From: Escherichia coli
GTDB taxonomy: Bacteria > Pseudomonadota > Gammaproteobacteria > Enterobacterales > Enterobacteriaceae
NCBI RefSeq assembly: GCF_050320075.1
Contig: NZ_CP190021.1
Direction: 5' to 3' (one strand)
Length of the DNA: 64,000 nt
Position 1 is the stretch's first letter. Every line of letters begins with the position of its first letter. Below the pieces are notes generated by a model that saw only the letters and a program-made list of their open reading frames with translations, did not search any database and had not been told where the DNA came from. Positions 4,713 to 64,000 of this stretch are shown here, one piece after another. The position numbers were made by a program, and so were the translations under genes.

Positions 4713-5080
4713 TTTACTCCCCCGCTCCGGCGGGGGTATGGCCTGCCAGGCCGCCGGAAAACCCTGGCAGGCTTACGCCTGCCTGAAATGCAGGAGGGCC
4801 GCGCCTGCGGCGCTGCCCTTCCTGCCCGTCATGGTGTGAGGCATTTTTCTGTTATGTCGTTTCTGTTGTTCTGATTTCCGGAGGCGGGGACACCTTCGGC
4901 TCCCGGCTGCCTGGCGGCATCCGGTCGTCAGGCCCGACTCCGACAGGCAGCTGCTGGCGCACCCGCCAGTCTCCGCCGAACCCGCTGGCGCGGTTTCGGG
5001 CTGCCGCTACGGTCCGATGTCTGAAAAACCAGGCTTGCAGCGACCGTTCCGGTCGCGCCGCCCCTGTCGCGCCGGAAACG

Positions 5081-5420
5081 GCGCTCCCTGCACACCTGAC
5101 GGTGTGTAAGGCCACTGCGCCTGATGGCGCAGTCAACCCTTCCGCCGCCACCCCTGCGGCCTGTTTCCCGCTGTGGACTTTCCGGGGGCTGGAGTAACCA
5201 CATCCCGTTTCAGCAGTCCAGGGGAAGATATACCGTCCACAAAATTTTTAGCCATAAACCCGGCAAAAAATTTTGCGTCCGCCCCCGGACAGCTGCCCCG
5301 TGACGTGGTGACGGACGCCCCATCGGAAAGGTCCACTGCGGGGAGAAACCCCGAAGAAGTGGACGGCAGAAGGGGCTTTCGCCCCTCCGGGGAGCAACCG
5401 GTCGGCCCGGCGACCTGATT
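5081..5420 (+). repeat. Frpo/ssi-like element, copy A (about 320 bp, homologous to 7959-8300)
   Basis: Blocks shared with copy B: GCGCTCCCTGCACACCT.ACGGTGTGTAAGGCCACTGCGCCTGATGGCGCAG ... GGACTTTCCGGGGG ... CCACATCCCGTTTCAG ... CCCCGGACA.CTGCCCCGTGACGTGGTGA ... CGGAAAGGTCCACTGCGGGGA. Internal long-range complementarity (GGACTTTCCG / CGGAAAGGTCC; CAAAATTTTT / AAAAATTTTG at the apex). Ends at a strong RBS. Confidence 0.7.
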
Positions 5421-5440
5421 CAGCAGAAGGAGACGTTTTC

Positions 5441-5875
5441 ATGACAGTCAGCAGCACGATTTCCGTTTTTTGCCGCGACGGGGTGTTCCGTACCGTTTAC
5501 TGCCACCTGCACGGGGAGCCGACCTGGAACGGTCGCATCCTGCATACCCACTATGCCACCGGTCAGCAGGCCGAAGCCCTGGTTGAACACGGTGATATCC
5601 GTTGCCTCGGTCCCCGTTGCGACAAACCCGCCGGGCATACGCTTCAGAACCCGGTGGACGGTGTGACGGCTTATTACGGACGTGACAGTGGTTTCCGGAT
5701 GGACAGTGAGGCGCGTGAGTACCGTTCTTTCAGGGAGGCTATTGCCACTGAAAGCACTGAAGAGGTGCGCTTCCATTATGTGTTCATCGACGGCTACTGG
5801 AAGGTGATGTACCGCACGCCGGAAGGCTGGAAGATGAAAGCGCTCGCGCTGGCACTGCGTCGCTGTCCGAAATGA
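5441..5875 (+). CDS. hypothetical leading-region protein (144 aa)
   Basis: AAGGAG RBS 8 nt upstream. Lies immediately downstream of Frpo-like copy A. No motif recognised. Confidence 0.65.
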   Translation: MTVSSTISVFCRDGVFRTVYCHLHGEPTWNGRILHTHYATGQQAEALVEHGDIRCLGPRCDKPAGHTLQNPVDGVTAYYGRDSGFRMDSEAREYRSFREAIATESTEEVRFHYVFIDGYWKVMYRTPEGWKMKALALALRRCPK

Positions 5876-5968
5876 AAAAAAGGCAGGGCGATAAACCCTG
5901 CCTCTCTCCGCCGGCGCTTCCCCGCCAGGAAGTCCGGCATCTCAATCACTATCTATGGAGATTATGCC

Positions 5969-6235
5969 ATGAGACCATCAATTATCTTCGCAACCGCCGA
6001 GTATGTAAAGCGTCTGCGTGAAGAGTGCCTGCGGGAGAATAAACCCCTGCACCGCCATACCCGCTTCAGACGTCAGGAGCTGGCACAGGATGAGATTAAC
6101 CCGGACGTCCTGGCGATGAGCGGCCATATCGCCAGACGCTGCAGTGAGCAGAAGCGGGTGCGTATCCCCGCTATGAAAGTCAGCGAATGGGGCCACCTGC
6201 TCCGCGCGCTTGAAATTGAGCGGGTCTGCCACTGA
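5969..6235 (+). CDS. hypothetical protein (88 aa)
   Basis: GGAG RBS and a basic protein. No family recognised. Confidence 0.45.
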   Translation: MRPSIIFATAEYVKRLREECLRENKPLHRHTRFRRQELAQDEINPDVLAMSGHIARRCSEQKRVRIPAMKVSEWGHLLRALEIERVCH

Positions 6236-6299
6236 TTAACCCTTGCCGTCTGCCTGTGCAGGCGGCAGGATACGTTCAGACATCTCACCAGGAGGAACC

Positions 6300-7238
6300 G
6301 TGAGTCAGAAGAAAACCACCACGACGCCCACGCCGCATGATGCCGCGTTCCGGTCGTTCCTGGCGAATCCCGACGTCGCCAGAGATTTTCTGGAACTGCA
6401 TCTTCCGGCGGAGTACCGGCAGTTGTGCGACCTGTCCACGCTGAAGCTGGAACCCGCCACCTTTGTTGAGCCGGACCTGCATCAGTACGCCAGCGATATC
6501 CTCTGGAGTGTGAAAACCACCGGGGGTGAAGATGGCTATGTTTATACGCTCATCGAGCACCAGAGCACCGAAAATCTGTACATGCCTTTCCGCATGTTAC
6601 GTTACAGTGTGGCGGCGATGCAGAGACATCTGGAGCAGCACAAAACGTTGCCACTGGTGATTCCTGTACTGTTCTATCATGGTGAGCGCAGCCCGTACCC
6701 GTACAGCATGAACTGGCTGGACTGTTTTGAGAATCCGGCACTTGCGGCTAAAATATACACAAAGCCGTTTCCGCTGGTTGATATCACTGTCGTTGATGAC
6801 AATGAAATCATGAACCATCGCCGGATGGCCGCACTGACGCTGCTGATGAAGCATATCCGCCATCGTGACATGATGGAGCTGCTGGACAAACTCCCGCAGG
6901 TCATGGTGGAAATTTCAGACGAGCAGGTGCGTGTTCTGATTCATTACATCGTTAACGCAGGGGACTCTGTATCACCGGAATTTATGCGGGCGCTGGCTGA
7001 GCGTCTGCCGCAGCATGAGGATAAACTGATGACTATCGCAGAACGTCTTGAGCAAAAAGGTCGCCAGGAGGGCAGGATGGAAGGACGCATGGAAGGACGC
7101 ATGGAAGGACGCATGGAAGGAGCGCTTGAAAAAGCCCTGGCTATTGCGTGCCAGCTTCAGAAAATGGGGATGACGCCGGAGCAGATTAAGCAGGCTACCG
7201 GACTTTCCGATGACGAACTGAAGAAAATCACTCACTGA
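6300..7238 (+). CDS. Rpn family recombination-promoting nuclease (YhgA-like, PD-(D/E)XK); full-length 'RpnL'
   Basis: GTG at 6300 follows GGAGGA. N-terminal signature PHDAAFRSFL...DFL..HLP ... SDILWSV ... Y.L.EHQS ... MPFRMLRY ... PLVIPVLFYHG is typical of RpnA-E/YhgA-like proteins. Confidence 0.85.
   Translation: MSQKKTTTTPTPHDAAFRSFLANPDVARDFLELHLPAEYRQLCDLSTLKLEPATFVEPDLHQYASDILWSVKTTGGEDGYVYTLIEHQSTENLYMPFRMLRYSVAAMQRHLEQHKTLPLVIPVLFYHGERSPYPYSMNWLDCFENPALAAKIYTKPFPLVDITVVDDNEIMNHRRMAALTLLMKHIRHRDMMELLDKLPQVMVEISDEQVRVLIHYIVNAGDSVSPEFMRALAERLPQHEDKLMTIAERLEQKGRQEGRMEGRMEGRMEGRMEGALEKALAIACQLQKMGMTPEQIKQATGLSDDELKKITH
7029..7238 (+). CDS. predicted intragenic small protein (RpnS-type antitoxin, 69 aa) in frame within rpn
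   Basis: In-frame ATG at 7029 with GAGGA 8 nt upstream. It starts exactly where the free-standing paralog (7300-7458) starts (MTIAERL.QKG). It encompasses the EGRM repeat. Confidence 0.45.
   Translation: MTIAERLEQKGRQEGRMEGRMEGRMEGRMEGALEKALAIACQLQKMGMTPEQIKQATGLSDDELKKITH
7068..7124 (+). repeat. 12-nt tandem repeat (GAAGGACGCATG, about 4.7 units) encoding (EGRM)n
   Basis: Read directly: gagggcaggatg gaaggacgcatg gaaggacgcatg gaaggacgcatg gaaggagcg. In frame inside rpn. Confidence 0.95.
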
Positions 7239-7250
7239 GTAAACATCACA

Positions 7251-7275
7251 GCCCGGCAAAATGCCGGGCTTTTTT
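7251..7275 (+). terminator. intrinsic terminator after rpn
   Basis: GCCCGGC-aaaat-GCCGGGC followed by TTTTTT. Confidence 0.8.
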
Positions 7276-7299
7276 GTCAGCAGGAGCAGAGCAAATAGC

Positions 7300-7458
7300 A
7301 TGACGATTGCAGAACGTCTTATTCAAAAAGGCGCACTTGAAGTGGCGCGGGAAATAGCCTGCCGGCTGCGGGATATGGGCTGGACGCCGGAACGGATTCA
7401 GGAGGCAACCGGACTTTCCGGTGAAGAACTGAAAAAGCTGTTTCCTGATGAGCAGTAG
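7300..7458 (+). CDS. stand-alone RpnS-like small protein (52 aa), paralog of the Rpn C-terminal domain without the EGRM repeat
   Basis: MTIAERLIQKGALEVAREIACRLRDMGWTPERIQEATGLSGEELKKL aligns with Rpn residues MTIAERLEQKG-(EGRM)n-ALEKALAIACQLQKMGMTPEQIKQATGLSDDELKKI. GGAG lies 13 nt upstream, which is suboptimal. Confidence 0.55.
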   Translation: MTIAERLIQKGALEVAREIACRLRDMGWTPERIQEATGLSGEELKKLFPDEQ

Positions 7459-7488
7459 CCTGGCATTCAGCCAGGCTGTGAATCACGC

Positions 7489-7740
7489 TCACACATCCTC
7501 TGCCGTTTCCCCCAGTTCATTTTCCAGTCGCCTGATGATATCTGCCTTACGCATCCCCTGCATGTGAGGCAGCAGGTCACGGACTGAAAGTGCCTGGGTG
7601 GTCCTCCAGACGGTGACGTCCACCTGTTCCGCATTTTCCCAGGCGTGCCATGTTCTCTGCGTCACGCCAAATTCTCTGGCCGCTTTTTCGCGTGACCAGA
7701 GCATGCTTTTTCGCCAGATTCGCAGTTCCCAGCCGGTCAT
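7489..7740 (-). CDS. small XRE/Cro-like HTH regulator (83 aa), the only minus-strand gene between psiB and the Frpo-B copy
   Basis: HTH-like segment REKAAREFGVTQRTWHAWE. Twin palindromes lie directly upstream. Confidence 0.65.
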   Translation of the reverse strand: MTGWELRIWRKSMLWSREKAAREFGVTQRTWHAWENAEQVDVTVWRTTQALSVRDLLPHMQGMRKADIIRRLENELGETAEDV

Positions 7741-7754
7741 AAAACACCTTTGAA

Positions 7755-7842
7755 AAAGTGAAAAAACTTCACTTTATTTTATCATCACAATTGCCAAATC
7801 AGCGCGATAAATAAGTGTAAAAAAGTGAAGAAATTTCACTTT
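7755..7842. promoter_or_regulatory. two 21-bp palindromic operator-like sites AAAGTGAA-N5-TTCACTTT
   Basis: 7755-7775 (aaagtgaa aaaac ttcacttt) and 7822-7842 (aaagtgaa gaaat ttcacttt). Centres are 67 bp apart, in the AT-rich gap between the HTH gene and Frpo-like copy B. Confidence 0.7.
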
Positions 7843-7958
7843 TTTTGCTTGTAAATGTCGTGCGGTTTTCTCTGTTTTCACCTGTGCGGGAGTGGTGTGC
7901 CAGTGACCACCACATGCCATTGTTGTGCCGTCGTTTTTCTTCAGTCGCGCCGTATGCG

Positions 7959-8300
7959 GCGCTCCCTGCACACCTTACGGTGTGTAAGGCCACTGCGCCT
8001 GATGGCGCAGCTGTCTCTGCCTGTCTGCCGCCGCACTGCGGCCTGTTCTCCGCAGACGGACTTTCCGGGGGTACATACATGACCACATCCCGTTTCAGTC
8101 GTCCAGGGGGGAGATGTACCAGCCACAAAACTTTTTGCCGCAGGCGTCAAAAACTTTTGCGTCTGCCCCCGGACAACTGCCCCGTGACGTGGTGAGCGTC
8201 CCCCGTCGGAAAGGTCCACTGCGGGGAAATCCCCGAAGACCCGGACGGCAGAAGGAGCTTCGCTCCTCCGGGAAATGACCTGGCTGTCCCGGCAGTCGTG
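7959..8300 (+). repeat. Frpo/ssi-like element, copy B
   Basis: Homologous to 5081-5420 (see copy A). Ends at the AGGAG RBS of the next gene. Confidence 0.7.
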
Positions 8301-17482: not shown

Positions 17483-17654
17483 GACAAAGTCTCCATTTCT
17501 GGAATTTAAATCAAACGGAAAGGTTAAAAATTTATTTGCAGGCGATAAGAGCTAACCAGAGGAATTAGCCGTGTGATAAAAGGATTGTTGCAGATACGAA
17601 AGTCGTTAGAATAGCTGCGGGCGCTTGAGGCTGTATGCCGAAAGCGTTTTGTGG

Positions 17655-17722
17655 ACGGTATACAGCAGAAAGCCCCTGGAGATTTTTTTATCAATCAACC
17701 AAGGGCTCTACTGTAATGCCTA
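17655..17722 (-). ncRNA. pndB: PndB (Sok-like) antisense RNA, approximate bounds
   Basis: Minus-strand TTGCCT-17-TACTAT/TATAAT promoter-like sequence at about 17760-17728. The predicted transcript covers the pndC start (17716) and contains the hairpin AGCCCTTGG...CCAGGGGCT followed by TTTCT. Confidence 0.5.
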
Positions 17723-17919
17723 GACAACATTATAGTAGCCCGATAACCGCCGTAAGGCAATGGAGGGGCTATGATGCCACAGCGAACGTTTTTAATGATG
17801 TTAATCGTCATCTGTGTGACGATTCTGTGTTTTGTCTGGATGGTGAGGGATTCGCTTTGCGGACTCCGGCTCCAGCAGGGAAACACAGTGCTTGTGGCAA
17901 CGTTAGCCTACGAAGTTAA
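17716..17919 (+). CDS. pndC: PndC (Mok-like overlapping reading frame)
   Basis: The frame overlaps pndA and ends 7 nt before the pndA stop. The ATG at 17716 lies inside the predicted antisense target. The track ORF starts earlier, at 17635. Confidence 0.55.
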   Translation: MPRQHYSSPITAVRQWRGYDATANVFNDVNRHLCDDSVFCLDGEGFALRTPAPAGKHSACGNVSLRS

Positions 17920-18249: not shown

Positions 18250-18402
18250 CGGATTTTCTCTCTGTATTTATGGGTAGTTATCGAACTGAATGTGCCAGTT
18301 TTTTCAGGAGACGGCAAAGTTGAGATGGTTGGTTCTGATTCAAAGCATGAGTTTCCCCGGTGTGACGGGCATGTCGGGCGGATTTTGAGAAACAACAGAT
18401 GT

Positions 18403-18433
18403 AAAAAAACCGACTGGTGAGGTCGGTTTTTTT
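18403..18433. terminator. perfect bidirectional intrinsic terminator
   Basis: AAAAAAACCGAC-tggtgag-GTCGGTTTTTTT. Confidence 0.85.
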
Positions 18434-18456
18434 ACTGTTCCGTTACAGAGTGGGTG

Positions 18457-18489
18457 GCTCTGGTCGGAAAAGAACTGTCTATAACTGAC
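18457..18489. repeat. 33-bp direct repeat, copy 1
   Basis: gctctggtcggaAaagaactgtctataactgac. Confidence 0.95.
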
Positions 18490-34336: not shown

Positions 34337-37300
34337 TCATCGGCCGGGGCTGTGGGAGAGATCCTGATGCAGAGTTTTTTCCTGCCTGTCCTCCGGCTTT
34401 TGGCTGTTGGACCACTGCTGCCATGACTGCTCGAAGCCCAGGTTCCGGTACAACGCATCAGGTTGTTTTTCCGGCGTGTAGACAGCAGCAAAAAGCGGTT
34501 CTTCCCGGGTTTTCAGATGAAACTGCATAAGCTCCGGTGCGGGGCGATTCGTGCTGTCAGCATCGTGGTTTACCGCTTCACCATAACCTGCAAAGCGTAA
34601 ACCTTTGTCGGTCAGCGCATTGATAACCAACTGACTGTTGTCGGCCGATGGGGTGGCCAGTGCCGGATACAATGTGCCGTTCAGCCGGACCACACCCTGC
34701 AGATGTTCATCGGCACTCTGGACAAGTAGCAGGTTGAGTTCACGCGTATCCTTATCCACTGATCCCAGAACAGGTGTCAGCTTGTCAGGGGCTGCGCTGG
34801 TTATTTCTGTTACCTGATTTGCGTTCTGTGGCGCGGAGACCGGATGTCGGTCTTCACCGATAAACAGATGTGAGCCGACGTTTTCTGGCATACGTAACGC
34901 TTTCATCTCTTCGGGCCACCCCTGGCTGATTTGCGCAGCCACTTTCATAAAGGTTTCGACCGGAATCGCCTGAATACGCTGACCTTTATCCGGATTATCA
35001 TGTGATACCGAGATCCCGTTGGTAACTGACTCCATGGACCACTTATTCCGGAAACGTGCTTTTTGCTCACCAGGGAGAATGAATTGTTCGCGGTTCTGAA
35101 GTGTCAGTGTCACCACGTCACCTTTCTGATGGTTTTTGACCAGACTTTCCAGTTGTTCCCCCCAGTAGAGTTTGCTGCCACTGCGGTTTTTAAGCTCAAC
35201 AAAGAAACTCTCTCCTTTGCCGGGTGCATATTCAGCACGACCAAAATTGTGCAGTACGGCAGTCACGCTCTCTCCCGGGCGAAGTTTTCCTGGTGGTTCT
35301 TCACCTTGTGCCGCATCTGCCGTTTTGCCAGGTTCAGCCGGTGATGATGCAGGGACGGTGCTGACGGTTGATGCTTCAGGGGCAACTGGGGACGCCGGGG
35401 ATTGTGTGGCTTCTTTTTCCTGAACGGGGTCAGGGACAACCGGTTGTTCAGGGGTATTCCGGTTAAGTTCCGGCGTTGGCTGATGGGTGACAACAGCATC
35501 CTTACCGACAGCCATTTCCTTACGTAATGTATCGAGCTCCAGACGCTGATCAGCGTGTTTCATGCGCACATTGATGTTGTGCTCGATAATCAACCGCATC
35601 GCTTTTTGCTTAAAGGCATCACTGCCTGTCAGCTCAATGACGCCACCATAGAAATTAGTGGCCACAGCAAGTGCGGCCAGAACACTGCGATCGTCATTGC
35701 TGGCACCGTCGACCATTTCCAGCCGGTTTACCCGGTCAATGAAGGCTGGTTTGCCATCCAGCTTGTACAGGACGGTTCTGTCTGCTCGTTTTTCACCCTT
35801 CAGTGATTTTATGATTTCGTCCAGATTAAGCGATATCGGTGCATCAGGACGTTCCGGGGCGTAGACAATACTGTCAGGTGTCGGTGTGGTCGTCGTGGTT
35901 TCCGGTGAGGGCGTGGGATCACTGTTCTCATGTGCCTGTGAATCCGTTTTTTTACGCGTAAAAAAGCCACGCGCTTTGTCGAGAAACGATGAAGTATTAT
36001 CAGAAGGTGATGTGCTCTGAACAGGTTGCTGTGGATTGGGTTCATCCCGGACAGCCGGTTCTGCAGTATCTGTTGTGGCCTGAAGTTCTGACTCATCTGC
36101 CTGAACGTGGTCTGTGTCCGGTTGCGACGGCATATCACTGTTTTCCTGCAGATGCTCAGGATTTTCATTGTTCATCAGCTCCTGATATGCGCTGTAGTTT
36201 TCGTATTCTTCGGGGCCATCTGACTCAGGAAGGAACGGCTCTGGCTGAAGGGGAATGTCTTCAGTTACATGGCTGACCGCCTCTTCCCGGGGAGTATCCG
36301 GGGATATTCCGGTGCTTTGTTTGTCATCAGGCTCCGTCATCACGGTCATTTCCTCTTTGACTGCATCAGGGGAAGGTGATGGCTCGGCTGATTCATTCAT
36401 GGTTTCAGATGAGGGACTGTCTTCAGGGGATGCGGGGGCGGCAGCAGGGGCCGGTATTTCAGGTGAAGTGCCGGATTCCTGTTGTGACTCGTTTTTTTCC
36501 GGTTGTGACAGTTCGGCTTCAAATTCACGCCAGTCTTTATCTGTGGCCACCGAGACAACTTTTTCCGGAGGTTCCGCCGGATGAGCGGGTTCATCAGGGG
36601 CAGATGCCGTTGTACTTTCCGGGGACGCCGGTGATTCTGCAGGGGAGTCCTGAACTACAGAGCTTTCCGTTTGCGCCTGAACGTTATCAGCGTGCCGCTC
36701 ATCTTTGCCGTTATTTTCAGTGGCGTGACTGGTAAATGACTGTGTTTCGTCAGCAATGTTACTGCTGGAAGCAGCTGGTTGTTCCTGCTGCGTGGCGGAC
36801 GGCAGAGAAGGTCCCTGGTCATGGCTGTGCCCTGTATCGGGTGATGTTTCAGGATATTCTGTCGGAGTCATGGTTTTTTCCTCAGTGTGGACCGGTGTAA
36901 AAACGAGGTTGCCGATCACCAGTGCCTCGCGGATTTCCGGGGTGTTACTGTTGGGGGTGGAAACCCCGATGTGTTCTAACTGGGCGTTGATGACATGCTG
37001 AAAAGCGGCCCGTCCCCGGCTTGCGTCCAGGTCATTGAAATCGGTCAGCCCCTGCGCTTTTTCGGCATCGGTGAACGCAGGAAAGATGACCGTTCCTCCT
37101 GTCAGTTCTGCGGCTTTTGTTGCACTGACGATACCTTTGTTAACCCGGATTGCATGATCGTTGTCGGCACAGAAGATAAAGGGGCTTTGCGTCCACTTTT
37201 GCCGGGCATTTTCGGCAACGGCAATCATGTTGCCTCCATCCACCGTCATCAGTACCGGAAGGCCCGTGGCTTCGTGCAGGGAGGCCGCAGTGGCATAGCC

Positions 37301-40195: not shown

Positions 40196-41010
40196 CGGGA
40201 GCCTCCTTCAGTGCCTATAAGCGGACGCCAGTGAGATTTCTGAAGATTGAATTCCGCATGATTTTTAAGGCGACGAACACGATCTCCAGTGACCAGTTTT
40301 TTCCCGTCACCTGTAACGGTTTGCATTTGATCAGAAACATCCGGACGGGTGATCATGCCCTGACGCCAGAGAAGTGAGTACAGCATCATGCCCCGGTAAT
40401 CACGGGTGAGGGTTTTCTGGTTGGCTTCAAGCGTCAGGTCGGCGTTTTGTCTTCCTTCCTGCCATCCCTGCCGTAATGCGGTTTCCCACACTTTTCGTTG
40501 CACGCTGTCTTCTGGAACGACGCTGCCTTCTGTACCCGGAGTGGCTGTTGTTGAAAGCCCCCGGAGAAGCCAGTCACGCCAGCCCGGTGGATTGCTGACA
40601 AAGCGTTCAGGGCGAATGATGGTCCAGACCCGGGAAGAGGTCCGGATTTGATCTGGCGTGATATGAGCTACGTCCTGTGCTTCATCAATAACCGGTGGTA
40701 GCCAGCCTTCCGGGCTAATCAGTGGCCGGAAATCGTATAAGGCATTAAGTGTGCTTTCCCGGGCGTTGAGCGCCTGAATCAGCTCCCATGAACGCTGAGC
40801 CTTGCCACCACGAAATCCAAGCGTTTTACCTGCGTCTGTCAGCATTTTCCAGCGTGTTTCTGACAGACTATCCGGCTTTTCACTTCGTGGTTTAAGCCAT
40901 GCATTAATGTCAGGTGGTGGCGTATTGACACCACCTGGCGAGATGGTAGGGGAAGAAGAACAACCAGTAAGCAGTATTACTGGCAAAAGGAGAGAGGTGA
41001 GTGCTTTCAT
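40192..41010 (-). CDS. traI: TraI lipoprotein (DotC-like)
   Basis: 272 aa with lipobox LLTGC. Confidence 0.85.
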   Translation of the reverse strand: MKALTSLLLPVILLTGCSSSPTISPGGVNTPPPDINAWLKPRSEKPDSLSETRWKMLTDAGKTLGFRGGKAQRSWELIQALNARESTLNALYDFRPLISPEGWLPPVIDEAQDVAHITPDQIRTSSRVWTIIRPERFVSNPPGWRDWLLRGLSTTATPGTEGSVVPEDSVQRKVWETALRQGWQEGRQNADLTLEANQKTLTRDYRGMMLYSLLWRQGMITRPDVSDQMQTVTGDGKKLVTGDRVRRLKNHAEFNLQKSHWRPLIGTEGGSR

Positions 41011-41465
41011 TTTTTCCGGTTCTCCGGCTGCATGAAGCTGACCTGTAACAAGCCCGGATATTGATGGATTGTTGCTCTCCAGGCTGTCTGGGCTTCAATA
41101 AGTCTCAACGTATTGGAAAACGTCATATCCCGGACGTGAAGGTTGACTGGTAACGGCAGGCGGACACCATTGTAGTTAAACTGCATCCCCCTGACTCTGG
41201 CCAGTTCGTTCAGTAATTCAATTGCATCACCTTCCCAGTCAAAGGAAAGGCGATCGCTGTTAGCTGTCAGAAGATGAGACCCCGTTGAAACCGGAAGTTG
41301 GCCGGAAAATACACCTTTGTCCCATAATGTGTACTGAGTGTGCCGGGTAACCGCCACATCAGAGGCAGCACCGTAGTTACGCGGAACAGGAGTATGCTGA
41401 GAAGGGGAGTTGCAGCCAGCCAGAAAAAGGGCGGCAAGACACCCCGCAGGTATAATACGGTTCAT
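41007..41465 (-). CDS. traH: TraH lipoprotein (DotD-like)
   Basis: 152 aa with lipobox FLAGC. Confidence 0.85.
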   Translation of the reverse strand: MNRIIPAGCLAALFLAGCNSPSQHTPVPRNYGAASDVAVTRHTQYTLWDKGVFSGQLPVSTGSHLLTANSDRLSFDWEGDAIELLNELARVRGMQFNYNGVRLPLPVNLHVRDMTFSNTLRLIEAQTAWRATIHQYPGLLQVSFMQPENRKK

Positions 41466-41674
41466 AATAATTCCTGAGCAGTTAAATCAGAATGGGATAT
41501 ACCGGTGCTCCGGTACAGACAGGATGATGTTTGTTTCCGGCTATACTTGCGTTACCGGAAATAAATGCCAGTGTGGCCAGGTAAATAGCCTCATAGTTTA
41601 CTGAAGGTGATTATTCCTGATACTGGCTGGTTGATGTGTCGTCAGACATAAAACGAATATGAGCGTAATCTTTA

Positions 41675-41820
41675 ACGCTCCGCGCCGAATCGATCCATGA
41701 TGGATGACTCGACGATTTATGAATCGAACGTACCGGCGCTTGTCCCTGAAACAGTTCCCGGCCCTCGTCCGGATAACCTGCAATTCAGACAGGCACATGT
41801 GCCCGTACACTCTTGTATCT
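41675..41820 (-). promoter_or_regulatory. conserved structured leader element, copy 1 (traG-traH gap), ending in an ops-like motif
   Basis: Homologous to 62171-62313 and 63233-63379. Minus sense ends ...CATCATGGATCGATTCGGCGCGGAGCGTTAA. Confidence 0.7.
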
Positions 41821-41859
41821 TACTGAGTATATCAGAATTTATGTAAATTCAAATATCCT

Positions 41860-42444
41860 CTATGCCTCTTTGTTGTATTTTCCGTCAAGTATGAGCCGGG
41901 TACCATCGTAATGCATGATCAGGGCATCAAGGTACGCCGGTTTGAATTTCTTGCCGAGCCTATCTCTGGCCAGAAATGATAAACAATGATTATGTGTCAT
42001 TATTACTATGTTCCTTTTATGAGATTCTCTTGCGATTGATTCAAGCGTCTTATAAAGATCATTATTGCAGTCTGATAAACTGTCCATAACGACGGGTTCT
42101 TTACCGGAGAAGAATTTTGCAGTTTGTATGGTTCTTACCGCATTGCTGGAGTAAATATCATATTCACTGAAGATTGTTGCGAACTTAATACCTTCCTGCT
42201 GTGCTTTCTCTGTACCGGTAATAGTGATTCCGCTTTTATCCGAATAGCATGGCATATCTGAACGGTCGCAACGTTCTCCATGGCGGAAAAGGAAAATAAC
42301 GGTGTTATCAGCATTAATTTCTTTTGCCTGTTCCAGGGTGATATCGGGAAGCGAGCTTTTTGCTTTTGTCACTGCCGCTACCAGGAAAACAGAAAATAAA
42401 AGAATGAATGCTGTTTTTGAATAAGAAGAACGTGGTTTCATCAT
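41860..42444 (-). CDS. traG: periplasmic histidine-phosphatase, Ais/PmrG-like (gene position of traG)
   Basis: 194 aa with a signal peptide. Catalytic motifs are FLFRHGERCDR and IVIMTHNHC. Near-colinear with E. coli Ais (LPS core heptose(II)-phosphate phosphatase) as I recall it (..YSSN.VRTIQ.A..FS.. , FKP.YLD.L.MH). Confidence 0.75.
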   Translation of the reverse strand: MMKPRSSYSKTAFILLFSVFLVAAVTKAKSSLPDITLEQAKEINADNTVIFLFRHGERCDRSDMPCYSDKSGITITGTEKAQQEGIKFATIFSEYDIYSSNAVRTIQTAKFFSGKEPVVMDSLSDCNNDLYKTLESIARESHKRNIVIMTHNHCLSFLARDRLGKKFKPAYLDALIMHYDGTRLILDGKYNKEA

Positions 42445-60692: not shown

Positions 60693-61376
60693 TCAGTGTA
60701 ATGTGATAGTCGTCTGCTCCTGTGTTGCACCCCAGACATCTTCTGGCAGGCTGGGCAGCCCGATAAATAAGGTGTGAAAGAGGGTTTCTCTGCGTTCGAT
60801 CCCGAATTGATGTTCGTATCCTCTCACCACCTGAAATCCTTCGTCGGAGAATATTAACTCTGCCGCTTCCAGAAGCTGCATAGTTTTGCGGTGTAGTGGA
60901 GTGATCAGCTGCAACGTAACTGGTGCCCTCATATCGCCTGTCGGTAGAAAACACTCTTCGGTGCGACTTAGTTGTAGCAGATGACGTTTCCCGGAACAGG
61001 CCCGTTCAATGGATTCATTGAACACCCTCTCAGGCCATGGGCAGACATATGTGCGCCAGCCTGCTTTCTGTAATTTACCCAGTGCAGCCCGAAAACGAAA
61101 CAACGGACATTCCCCGACAGTGGCAGAGCTGAGAAAGAGCGTATTCAGCGTTCCGATGATGGGAATATTGCGATCTTTTTCGGTCAATGCTTTTAACGCC
61201 ATGATTTCGCCAGGGAGACTACGGAACTCAGGATGTCTGCTGGCACCAGAAAGCCATTCAAGCAGGTAATGCCGTAATCCGGTTTCACTGGTTATATTGT
61301 GGTTTTCCTGTGCCGTTTTCAGGGCATTCAGTGCACACCAGAGCAACTGGCGCACGGGATGTTCTGTCGTGGTCAT
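60693..61376 (-). CDS. traC: TraC, positive regulator of transfer genes
   Basis: 227 aa. Called from gene order traA-B-C-D. Confidence 0.8.
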   Translation of the reverse strand: MTTTEHPVRQLLWCALNALKTAQENHNITSETGLRHYLLEWLSGASRHPEFRSLPGEIMALKALTEKDRNIPIIGTLNTLFLSSATVGECPLFRFRAALGKLQKAGWRTYVCPWPERVFNESIERACSGKRHLLQLSRTEECFLPTGDMRAPVTLQLITPLHRKTMQLLEAAELIFSDEGFQVVRGYEHQFGIERRETLFHTLFIGLPSLPEDVWGATQEQTTITLH

Positions 61377-61629: not shown

Positions 61630-62184
61630 CTATGGGATGTTTACAAGGCGCTCCATAAAGCCGTGATGTTCGGCATTTGATACCAGTTCCAGGAGCAGGG
61701 ATATCCTCGACTCAGGCTGGAGAGTATTTTCCATTCTGAGGAGATACTGATATTGTGCTTTTGTCAGCCATATGCTGGAAGCCGCATTCAGCTCTTCCCT
61801 GGCTCCCGGATTTAGCACAGGGTCCGGGTAAATCTTCATTAATCCATCAACAATATCTTTATTGACGGGTTTTATTTCACCGCCAAACTTCACGAAATCA
61901 ATGAAGGCGCTATGTCGACGTAATGCTGATACTGGGTGAATGTCAAAATTAGCCAGAATAAAAAAGTACCCTGGAAAAATAGCGAATATTCTTTCACGGT
62001 AACAGCACCTGGAGTCTGCCCGTCTTATCTTTCTTGTTATTAATGGAGTCCATGGTACGACGTTTTGCTCATTCAGCCATGAGAATAAAGATTCTCTGTT
62101 TTTGCCGGCTGTATTATATTGCGCAAGATACCAGTTCCGGTTATTCAGGTGTTCTATATTCACGAAGTTCAACGCTCCGCGCAA
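61630..62184 (-). CDS. traB: TraB, NusG/RfaH-family (NGN domain) transcription antitermination-type regulator
   Basis: NGN signature NWYLAQY...FPGYFFILANFD...FIDFVKFGGEIKPV is colinear with RfaH (SWYLLYC...FPNYLFVEFD...VSHFVRFG). The start is uncertain: TTG at 62184 is the maximal ORF, and GTG at 62163 is more plausible. Confidence 0.85.
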   Translation of the reverse strand: MRGALNFVNIEHLNNRNWYLAQYNTAGKNRESLFSWLNEQNVVPWTPLITRKIRRADSRCCYRERIFAIFPGYFFILANFDIHPVSALRRHSAFIDFVKFGGEIKPVNKDIVDGLMKIYPDPVLNPGAREELNAASSIWLTKAQYQYLLRMENTLQPESRISLLLELVSNAEHHGFMERLVNIP

Positions 62185-62313
62185 AACCGATCCATGATGG
62201 ACGATTTTGCGATGTCAGGCGAATATGCTAAATCATATGTCTGAAGCAGTGTCCAGCCCATATCTGGATAAACTGCAGTTCTGACAGGCATATAACCAGC
62301 AGACTCTAGTACG
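62171..62313 (-). promoter_or_regulatory. conserved structured leader element, copy 2 (immediately upstream of and overlapping the traB start)
   Basis: Minus sense ends ...CATCATGGATCGGTTTTGCGCGGAGCGTTGA. Confidence 0.7.
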
Positions 62314-62578
62314 TTCTGTATCGGTGATTTGGCGAACTCACAGATAAAGAACGGCTAAGCACTAATATCAGCAATACAGTGGCACAGTATTGTGATACGC
62401 GAAATAAAACATCAGCACGTCAGTTCAGAGTAAGGTCGCCATATATCGGGCATGAGCCAGATACAAATAACTGGGACACCGTCTGAAGTGATTTGCTTTA
62501 TTAAAGTAACTTGTGCTTGGTGTTTATGTTTATCAATTTGGGATCGCCTGTAAAGTGCAAAATGCAATTTCCATGAAA

Positions 62579-62604: not shown

Positions 62605-62913
62605 TCACATTTTTTCGTTTTCTTTAGCTGTATTGCTAATCATGAAAACGAAAGTTCGCATCAGCACAGCAGAGCGAAGTGCATCATATCCTTCCAGATT
62701 TAAATTCTTCAGGCTTCGCTTCAGGTAGGTTCGTACCGTTTCGGGAGAAAGCCGACAGTTCTGAGCAATGGCGTCGTAAGGAACACCCATTGCGTAAAAA
62801 ACGCAGACTTTAAGCTGGTTTGTTGATAGCTCGGGAAACATGCCTTCCAACAGAGTGATGGCCGGGAGTTTCTGTATCAGTTGAGGTGACATAGCAAAGG
62901 TCTCCGATGACAA
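62605..62913 (-). CDS. traA: TraA, LuxR/FixJ-type HTH regulator
   Basis: 102 aa. HTH region is LSTNQLKVCVFYAMGVPYDAIAQNCRLSPETVRTYLKRSLKNL. Confidence 0.82.
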   Translation of the reverse strand: MSSETFAMSPQLIQKLPAITLLEGMFPELSTNQLKVCVFYAMGVPYDAIAQNCRLSPETVRTYLKRSLKNLNLEGYDALRSAVLMRTFVFMISNTAKENEKM

Positions 62914-63232
62914 CTAAAAACGCTATCACCGAGTTCCTACGCTCATTGGTGATAGCCCAGACGGGGGTAGGAATACCGGCGTCATCGGAAACCGGCCAGG
63001 CTAATGCCTGCCCCGCCTGAGCTACCATAGATGACGACAAGAAATACAAGTTCCTGTCTTTATGGTATGGCAAAAAACGACGCCAAATGAAGAAATTAAC
63101 TTCTGCGCCGACGATGACTACGCGGGTTCCTACGCCCGATCACAGTTTTGCCTGTGACCAGTAAAGGGTACTTAGTATAACGCACCGAGTCAACTAACAG
63201 CTTAAAAAACATACAAAAAAGCGTCAAAACTT

Positions 63233-63379
63233 AACGCTCCGCGCCGAAGCGATCCAGGCATGATGCTTCTGCTTTGTGGCGTTCGAACATGCTGGTCCAT
63301 ATGCACGAAACGGTGTCTGACCCTCGTCCAGACAATCCGCAGTTCTGACGAACATATGAACAAATATGCTCTTGTAGAG
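63233..63379 (-). promoter_or_regulatory. conserved structured leader element, copy 3 (about 320 nt upstream of traA)
   Basis: Minus sense ends ...CATCATGCCTGGATCGCTTCGGCGCGGAGCGTTAA. Confidence 0.7.
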
Positions 63380-63383
63380 GCTG

Positions 63384-63413
63384 TTGTTACACAATTGGCG
63401 GGTTGTGTAACAA
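63384..63413. promoter_or_regulatory. perfect 11-bp inverted repeat TTGTTACACAA-N8-TTGTGTAACAA
   Basis: Arms at 63384-63394 and 63403-63413, directly upstream (minus sense) of leader copy 3. Could be an operator or an RNA hairpin. Confidence 0.6.
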
Positions 63414-63429
63414 ATGGTTTTATCATCTA

Positions 63430-63700
63430 AGAATCATTCTATTTACGATCGAATGATCTACAAAATGATTTTTTAAAGGTTATTTAGATCGTTTAATTGC
63501 ATTAAAACAGAATATTATTCTGTTAGGTAGATCGGTTGTAAGATAAATGATCGTGAGTAGGATAAAAGTCGATCTTTTAATCCAAAAGAAAGATCTAAAG
63601 CAGAAAAATCTGCTTTTAAAAATAGATTTTATTTTTTTGACGCAGGTCAAGATTAACTTATTAGAGGTATCAGTGAGGAGGCACTGGAAGAGAAGAGATC
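63430..63700. other. AT-rich, GATC-dense origin-like region (candidate IncI1 oriV)
   Basis: Seven GATC sites in 149 bp (63447, 63455, 63487, 63530, 63549, 63571, 63592), high AT content and no ORF. Its position next to traA and downstream (minus sense) of a terminator fits the repZ-CIS-ori layout. Confidence 0.55.
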
Positions 63701-63879: not shown

Positions 63880-63943
63880 CATAAAAGGAAAACCCCCACT
63901 ATCTTTCTTACGAACTTGGCGGAACGACGAAAGATAGTGGGGG
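63880..63943 (-). terminator. strong intrinsic terminator (candidate repZ/CIS terminator)
   Basis: 15-bp perfect stem CCCCCACTATCTTTC (63893-63907) / GAAAGATAGTGGGGG (63929-63943). In minus sense it is followed by TTTTCCTTTTAT. Confidence 0.75.
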
Positions 63944-64000
63944 CCTCACAGAATACGGGTAAAGTATAATGAAACCGTACCAGAGATTCAACCCTGTGCA

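Follow-up and report, generated by a model that had tools for sequence, protein, structure and literature searches.

The 64,000-nt stretch of Escherichia coli DNA analyzed here (contig NZ_CP190021.1 of assembly GCF_050320075.1), hereafter the window, belongs to an IncI1 resistance plasmid, and its traA–traB region matches many IncI1 records at 100% identity. On the minus strand, traA and traB are followed by traC, then by the pil genes, and then by the tra genes (Table 1). Three copies of a leader element lie in this region, all in sense orientation and 5' of traH (copy 1), traB (copy 2), and traA (copy 3), at operon starts. The element comprises approximately 170 bases, spanning from TACAAGAG (at 41817, 62311, and 63376, respectively) through a terminal 12-mer. 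Copy 1 is located past the traG stop codon and about 210 nt ahead of the traH start, and the tail of copy 2 ends 7 nt before the traB start, an inferred GTG. IncI1 and related I-complex plasmids are major carriers of extended-spectrum β-lactamase and AmpC genes. To our knowledge, the evidence that TraB and TraC act as essential activators of conjugation in these plasmids is genetic only. The element is a structured leader RNA that ends in a candidate site for TraB.

A first-pass annotation made from the letters of the window alone had proposed three homologous minus-strand copies of about 145 nt. An nhmmer profile built independently from 18 non-IncI1 homologs recovered exactly these three sites in the 64-kb window, the next match having an E-value of ~1. 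All of the shared blocks listed in that annotation are present, but the element is larger than was described. Over ~145 columns, the three elements share 65–69% pairwise identity. The hidden Markov model (HMM) and a covariance model (CM) revealed no fourth copy in the remainder of ColIb-P9 (L216, a complete IncI1 plasmid) and no additional one in the transfer regions of divergent plasmids, of which four 50-kb stretches were scanned; the CM also gave no further match in the window. Upstream of copies 2 and 3 stands a CCGCCAAnT box, which is missing before copy 1, where TATACT sits 8 nt upstream instead. The box of copy 3 lies within a perfect 13-bp inverted repeat (TTGTTACACAA..TTGTGTAACAA). 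This box may be a promoter, activator, or operator site, perhaps for TraA.

The leader folds into a conserved RNA structure. RNAalifold applied to 23 diverse sequences gave a long closing helix (P1) and a 3' hairpin (P3), to which an inner helix (P2) and the hairpin enclosed by it (P2c) were added by inspection. P1 contains 16 pairs, 14 of which are changed on both sides, with 85% of the cells paired; P2 contains 9 pairs (79% paired), and the traA copies show an A-U to G-C double change in it; P2c has double changes in three of its four pairs; and P3 contains 9 pairs (85–87% paired), 7 with double changes. For the 38-pair fold as a whole, 81.8% of the cells are paired and 29 pairs are changed on both sides, as opposed to 33–42% and 16–20 pairs when the 3' partners are slid by 1–3 columns. 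The covariation score is 0.384, compared with 0.07–0.11 for the slid alignments, and none of 500 shuffles reaches any of the observed fold measures. A CM-based realignment agrees (82–84% paired over the two alignments), and each copy in the window, taken alone, folds into P1, P2, P2c, and P3 at minimum free energy (MFE). Since G-U cells (94) outnumber A-C cells (29), the folded strand is the tra-sense strand. Moreover, P1 pairs starting inside TACAAGAG covary, so that the folded molecule begins at or before TACAAGAG. The leader is thus a structured RNA whose covariation exceeds both the positional and the shuffle controls.

Selection on structure had been suggested from a single hairpin with compensatory substitutions, and a CM check on homologs had been recommended; the check bears the suggestion out, with covariation far stronger and wider (38 pairs) than that hairpin. 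The stems in question, CCGG/CCGG, CCAG/CTGG, and CTGG/TCAG, are real and correspond to P2c, although the coordinates given for them were off by one (41758–41772 in copy 1). A homolog from IncB/O/K adds a stem of GCTGA/TCAGC, giving compensatory changes at four of the five stem positions. The recommended Rfam search for JUMPstart and other ops-containing motifs fared otherwise: no Rfam family, JUMPstart included, matched the elements at the gathering threshold or at E-values up to 10. The leader is a new, well-supported structured RNA family outside Rfam. Within the 3' arm of P3, GGATC is near-invariant, and its first four bases are invariant in 23 of 23 sequences. GGATC contains a Dam site, and it stays near-invariant in all lineages even where its pairing partner changes.

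Two other functions for the conserved stretch seem very improbable, namely that it encodes a small peptide, MDRFGAER, or that the elements are targets of a C4-like antisense RNA from the traA leader. The upstream open reading frame (uORF) for this peptide does occur in copies 1 and 2, with the ATG out of frame in copy 3, as had been noted (its position in copy 1 is 41672–41698, one base from that given), and copy 3 is followed, 200 nt downstream, by a C4 RNA (77.5 bits). However, the ATG is found in only 8 of the 23 homologs, indels shift the frame, and the bases concerned form the P3 stem, in agreement with the earlier view that the conserved unit is nucleic acid rather than peptide. Likewise, the C4 loop gives only patchy duplexes with the three elements, in contrast to its clean pairing with the traA ribosome-binding site and the a1b1 stretch.

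To trace the element beyond IncI1, TraB homologs were gathered by tblastn against plasmids, a metagenome scan, and a search of 5.8 billion proteins (31 clusters at 75% identity), and DNA was examined for 18 TraB lineages, i.e., IncI1 and relatives down to ~40% TraB identity. In 17 of these, a core of the form GCG-N(1–2)-AGC-N-T lies immediately 5' of traB, and the element core is 21–51 nt from the conserved W-Y codon of traB. The full-length element was detected in 16 of the 17; the other (L206) was matched by the CM and the 3' core only. Every non-IncI1 relative examined carries one copy per plasmid, at traB, and its transfer genes form a single co-oriented block downstream of traB. These single-copy plasmids include IncB/O/K and more distant ones of Citrobacter, Enterobacter, Klebsiella, Salmonella, Pectobacterium, and Yersinia. 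IncI1-type loci (TraB 92–99% identical) also carry the traA copy, and the traH copy was confirmed in IncI1 plasmids only, the other IncI1-type loci obtained ending before traH. The set of three sites proposed earlier was thus seen only in IncI1-type plasmids, the non-IncI1 relatives having a single traB site. Because the core stands 5' of traB in 17 lineages and is the sole copy outside IncI1, the traB-leader copy is ancestral, and the traA and traH sites were gained in IncI1. A contig scan with GGATCN{6,7}CGCGRAGCGTT returned only chance matches in GC-rich metagenome-assembled genomes, none adjoining a TraB homolog (L108 checked).

The terminal 12-mer, GCGCGGAGCGTT, occurs exactly three times in the window. 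The first-pass annotation had described it as invariant and ops-like. The likeness stands, but the whole 12-mer is not the conserved unit: only GCG, a loop of 1–2 nt (G, A, or AG), AGC, N, and T are kept across the 17 lineages. The A, G, C, and T of the tail are invariant columns in the homolog alignment, as are its GC/GC stem and the G..A, and the loop is variable. The tail starts 2–3 nt past P3, and the P3 core ends 11–12 nt upstream of the conserved T, or 8 nt if its base extends. No covarying RNA partner for the tail was found in the homolog alignment, by RNAalifold, or in the MFE folds. Nine positions of the RfaH recruitment site ops are common to the tail, with one deletion. In ops (GGCGGTAGCGTG = GCG-GT-AGC-G-T), the non-template strand forms a hairpin with a C3:G8 stem and a G4–A7 loop; T6 flips into RfaH, bases 3–8 are required for RfaH recruitment, and T11/G12 are required for the pause (Zuber et al., PMC5995543). 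The match to the E. coli ops consensus GGCGGTAGnnTG fails in that T6 is absent and G12 mostly absent, and hence the tail is not an RfaH ops proper.

The tail variants GCGGAGC, GCGAAGC, and GCGAGAGC (the last in L209 and L215) are literal members of a class of extraordinarily stable DNA mini-hairpins, d(GCGNAGC) and d(GCGNNAGC), which have melting temperatures of 70–76 °C (71.5 °C for GCGAGAGC) and consist of two G-C pairs and a sheared G-A pair (PMC13037366). According to the same review, the DNA form is markedly more stable than the RNA form (PMC13037366). The class was defined on oligonucleotides, and here the hairpin would have to form in the transcription bubble. Together with the tail pattern, it favors a DNA-level, ops-like reading of the tail, and the missing T6 suggests a specificity unlike that of the host RfaH. 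The hairpins that follow copies 1 and 3 use the 3' half of the 12-mer; a terminator-like hairpin with a U run is clear after copy 3 and weak after copy 1. No such hairpin was found after copy 2 or after the ancestral traB copies.

The position of the tail also has to be considered in terms of translation. In most lineages, its GGAG or GAAG lies 1–18 nt ahead of the traB start. The leader could then be an RNA-only cis-regulator of traB, i.e., a riboswitch-like, thermosensor-like, or protein- or small RNA-responsive 5' untranslated region (UTR) that gates the GGAG Shine–Dalgarno (SD) sequence; TraB would not act there, and copies 1 and 3 would be duplicated leaders attenuating at the following hairpin. 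The strong RNA-type covariation with G-U pairs suits such a regulator, as do the placement of GGAG/GAAG, the ability of the copy 2 tail to pair across the GUG start, and preliminary effects of hfq on traA and traBC expression (PMC5801416). However, the conserved GCG, AGC, and T form no SD consensus, the spacing to the start codon varies over 1–18 nt, the motif lies inside a called open reading frame in L207, no start codon follows copies 1 and 3 at the equivalent distance, and there is neither a conserved RNA partner for the tail nor an Rfam match. We consider this explanation unlikely. A tail that serves as an SD sequence only is also unlikely, given its non-consensus bases and variable spacing.

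The mini-hairpin raises one more alternative, that the element acts as single-stranded DNA (ssDNA) on the transferred strand, as a priming (ssi, G4-type) or ssDNA-promoter signal in conjugation. In ColIb-P9, the leading-region and tra genes are on opposite strands, and transcription of the leading genes uses the incoming strand (PMC12672017), from which it follows that the tra-sense strand would be the one transferred. Mini-hairpins are found at ssDNA replication origins (PMC13037366), and the element has a three-hairpin layout of ~150 nt. Yet its position is locked to the traB start in the 17 lineages and to operon starts in IncI1, neither of which a priming site needs; outside IncI1 there is one copy per plasmid; and the element bears no similarity to the leading-region repeat families of the window. 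A role in ssDNA is accordingly improbable.

The proposed trans-acting partner of the element is TraB, which is required for transfer and, on genetic evidence, positively regulates the transcription of pil as well as the transfer genes (PMC5013300; PMC4288162); traB is itself activated by TraA via a 54-bp upstream segment (PMC5801416). The family profile of TraB matched PrfaH of IncX3 (9ik0) in the PDB with an E-value of 1.3e-13 and E. coli RfaH with 2–4e-8 over both domains, compared with 0.006 or worse for housekeeping NusG. The AlphaFold2 (AF2) model of TraB (predicted local distance difference test, pLDDT, 78; predicted template modeling score 0.74) consists of an NGN domain and an all-helical C-terminal domain, with helices at residues 121–128, 135–146, and 153–167 (pLDDT 50–80, moderate confidence). 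In a Foldseek search with this model, the first eight matches were RfaH or PrfaH, the best being the RfaH:ops complex; the model aligns over ~160 columns to autoinhibited RfaH, and the matches include autoinhibited RfaH on paused complexes. In both sequence and predicted fold, TraB is thus an RfaH-clade NusG paralog, as the first-pass annotation had stated. Its C-terminal domain is predicted, with moderate confidence, to be helical and autoinhibited and not a KOW barrel. The stretch that aligns with the ops-binding helix of RfaH (R-x-H-S-A-F) is among the most conserved of the family.

In the relatives examined, traC always follows traB. Two of nine TraC homologs weakly match DUF2913 (E 8.5e-5), and the AF2 model of TraC (pLDDT 76) showed no informative structural neighbor and no match to an RNA-binding fold. 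Genes with DUF2913 also lie near rep in the related plasmids L004, L212, and L213. The constant presence of this essential partner gene is one of the points for antitermination by RNA recognition, of the LoaP, nut, or put type, in which TraB or TraC would bind the leader RNA (the GGAUC of P3 or the P2c loop) or the RNA itself would modify the polymerase. Others are the conserved multi-helix RNA, with its invariant GGAUC and a GGG in the P2c loop in IncI1 and B/O/K, and the existence of NusG paralogs that bind leader RNA hairpins (LoaP). Against it, the tail, which is the segment that varies least, looks like a DNA mini-hairpin and like ops, the RNA form being the less stable (PMC13037366); the closest solved relatives of TraB, RfaH and PrfaH, read non-template DNA; and the TraC model resembles no RNA-binding fold. 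Recognition at the RNA level is, in our judgment, even a little less likely than an RNA-only regulator.

On balance, it is somewhat probable that the element is a plasmid-private, ops-like loading site for TraB placed within a structured leader RNA. From the homology, the fold, the conservation pattern, and the likeness of TraB to RfaH, we infer pausing, TraB binding, and antitermination along the following lines. The element would have two layers, an RNA of ~150 nt with closing P1, inner P2 bearing P2c, and 3' hairpin P3, and an invariant tail, GCG-N-AGC-N-T, that forms a mini-hairpin on the non-template DNA as at ops. RNA polymerase would slow at the conserved T, possibly aided by P3 in the RNA exit channel, and the exposed non-template GCG(G/A)AGC hairpin would be read by the NGN domain of TraB. 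TraB would then stay on the polymerase and render it resistant to termination, both at the hairpin or terminator after copies 1 and 3 and against Rho- or H-NS-dependent polarity in the long AT-rich pil and tra operons. The terminator-like hairpins immediately past copies 1 and 3 fit a loading site just before a terminator. A site in the leader of traB itself would imply positive autoregulation and read-through into traC, pil, and tra, like PrfaH in IncX3. A more elaborate version, in which the three-helix covarying leader positions or pauses the polymerase and d(GCGNAGC) recruits TraB, so that a composite RNA and DNA signal switches on a transfer regulon of ~45 kb, is conceivable but clearly more doubtful.

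Several observations weigh against a TraB loading site. Nearest-neighbor DNA folding gave the motif −2.1 kcal/mol, no better than shuffles, although this model misses the stability of GNA loops and is therefore uninformative for the motif. A pause-promoting G follows the conserved T within 1–3 nt in only about half of the lineages, and part of the motif conservation may be translational, owing to overlap with the traB ribosome-binding region. One of the 18 lineages (L205, 41% identity) has neither element nor motif. Variation in TraB residues (WYLAQ/WYLAL, RRH/RAH) is not convincingly linked to the loop base when phylogeny is taken into account, since the pattern is confined to one clade. A scan for sigma-70 promoters upstream of the traA and traB copies revealed no convincing −10 element at a suitable spacing, and the searchable literature yielded no published start sites of traA, traB, or traH transcription. 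Finally, pairing within P3 accounts for only part of the constancy of GGATC, classical ops sites lack anything like the large RNA fold, and a loading site does not account for the role of P1 and P2.

The TraB element resembles ops/RfaH in lying on the sense strand of a promoter-proximal leader, in its frame (GCG-GT-AGC-G-T for ops and GCG-G/A-AGC-N-T for the TraB site), in having invariant stem bases and T around a variable loop, and in the clade of its factor, for which an autoinhibited helical C-terminal domain is predicted. Unlike ops, the candidate TraB site has a loop shorter by one base, without the flipped-out T6 recognized by RfaH, and lacks conservation of G12; its motif is joined to a covarying RNA fold of ~150 nt, and the factor is plasmid-encoded with a candidate site in its own leader. 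PrfaH (ActX) of IncX3, to which the TraB family profile gave its best PDB match, is likewise a plasmid-encoded RfaH paralog essential for conjugation; its binding site is a short hairpin on the non-template strand, located in the 5' UTR of the gene that encodes it, with which the transfer operon opens (PMC11880322). The same study names R64 TraB as a PrfaH homolog and gives no IncI site (PMC11880322). Yet, the PrfaH site is CGG-GGTCAT-CCG and not GCG-N-AGC, reports on IncX3 mention no large structured leader, and of the three sites in IncI1, two precede terminator-like hairpins. With JUMPstart, put, nut, and LoaP, the element shares a conserved structured leader beside or around an antiterminator loading signal, but the architecture of P1, P2, P2c, P3, and tail is unique to it. 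No description of the repeated leader or its motif was found in the searchable literature. Collectively, sequence comparison yields a coherent and strengthened picture of a variant ops/RfaH-like site that appears to be joined to a new structured RNA family.

If correct, this picture would supply a defined cis site for TraB as a concrete and easily mutated target, and a second, sequence-distinct case of ops-type recognition of the non-template strand after RfaH and PrfaH. It would also allow asking whether the length of the GCG..AGC loop sets paralog specificity. Should the composite version hold, NusG paralogs would select their operons through one mini-hairpin code, with GCG-NN-AGC (ops) and GCG-N-AGC (the TraB site) as two settings.

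Table 1. Positions of genes, element copies, and other features in the window.
Feature	Position	Strand	Remarks
traG	41860–42444	minus	gene 5' of copy 1; stop at 41860
traH	41007–41465	minus	DotD-like; start at 41465; neighbors of copy 1 assigned by Pfam
traC	60693–61376	minus	essential TraB partner; no Pfam match
traB	61630–62163	minus	NusG-like, RfaH-like paralog; Pfam NusG 20.9 bits; start at 62163
traA	62605–62892	minus	LuxR/sigma-region-4-type helix-turn-helix protein
Copy 1, traH leader	41661–41828	minus	CM 132.5 bits; non-IncI1 profile E 2.4e-22
Copy 2, traB leader	62158–62329	minus	CM 137.6 bits; non-IncI1 profile E 6.5e-21
Copy 3, 5' end of traA leader	63220–63392	minus	CM 142.1 bits; non-IncI1 profile E 1.6e-24
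P1, copy 1	41794–41812 with 41726–41744	minus	also in single-sequence MFE folds
P1, copy 2	62289–62306 with 62221–62239	minus	
P1, copy 3	63353–63371 with 63285–63303	minus	
P2, copy 1	41746–41788	minus	CTGAATTGCAG with CTGTTTCAG; encloses P2c
P2, copies 2 and 3	62241–62283; 63305–63347	minus	
P3, copies 1–3	41687–41710; 62184–62207; 63246–63269	minus	
Minus-strand GGATC in P3, copies 1–3	41692–41696; 62189–62193; 63251–63255		
Terminal 12-mer, copies 1–3	41674–41685; 62171–62182; 63233–63244	minus	
Copy 1 tail core	41677–41683	minus	GCGGAGC; invariant T at 41675
Hairpin GAGCGT..ACGCTC	41661–41680	minus	overlaps copy 1 motif, then weak T-rich tract; terminator-like scan, MFE
Terminator-like hairpin	63208–63240	minus	overlaps copy 3 motif; 10 pairs, then TTTTTTGTATGTTTTTT; scan, MFE
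CCGCCAAnT box, copy 3	63394–63401	minus	CCGCCAAT; ~20–24 nt 5' of TACAAGAG
CCGCCAAnT box, copy 2	62327–62335	minus	TCGCCAAAT; kept in most distant homologs too
Inverted repeat, copy 3 box	63384–63413		
C4 antisense cassette	62895–63184	minus	
c4-a1b1	63119–63171	minus	32.9 bits
isrK-like stretch	63073–63158	minus	
C4 RNA	62945–63032	minus	77.5 bits
TATACT hexamer	63173–63178	minus	
Hairpin after traA	62575–62600	minus	
GATC cluster	~63440–63700	minus	
repZ leader pseudoknot	63885–64000		Rfam PK-repZ
Direct-repeat families D1–D6	5066–8234	plus	
sok and AgrB matches	17619–17776; 18401–18488	plus; minus	leading/maintenance region

Downstream of copy 3, the traA leader contains a C4 antisense cassette of the phage P1 type. 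The C4 loop, UUUCCGAUGAC, is complementary to GUCAUCGGAGA over the traA SD sequence (~62901–62911), with a duplex energy of −25.8 kcal/mol, and pairs with a1b1 at −34 kcal/mol. After an offset of +27521, the cassette coincides with the published Hft region of pESBL (35394–35663). Transposon insertions in this 'superspreader' region raise traA expression 50-fold (PMC4288162; PMC5801416), and the C4 cassette offers an explanation for this derepression, as judged from its predicted pairing. C4 was not found named in the Hft literature. At the upstream edge of the Hft/C4 cassette lies TATACT, a −10-like hexamer without a recognizable −35; a second promoter there, if real, would explain the loss of traA expression on deletion of Hft.

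Directly past the traA stop codon is a hairpin, GTGTCCCC-ATTAA-AGGGGACAC, which may terminate transcription between traA and the promoter and leader of traB. GATC sites are densely clustered between the promoter region of copy 3 and the repZ leader pseudoknot. In the leading region, the members of the direct-repeat families D1–D6 are 75–94% identical and lie ~2.9 kb apart; they are probably the ssDNA-promoter/ssi hairpins described for the leading region of pESBL. Rfam also matched the sok antitoxin RNA and AgrB (type I toxin antisense) in the leading/maintenance region.

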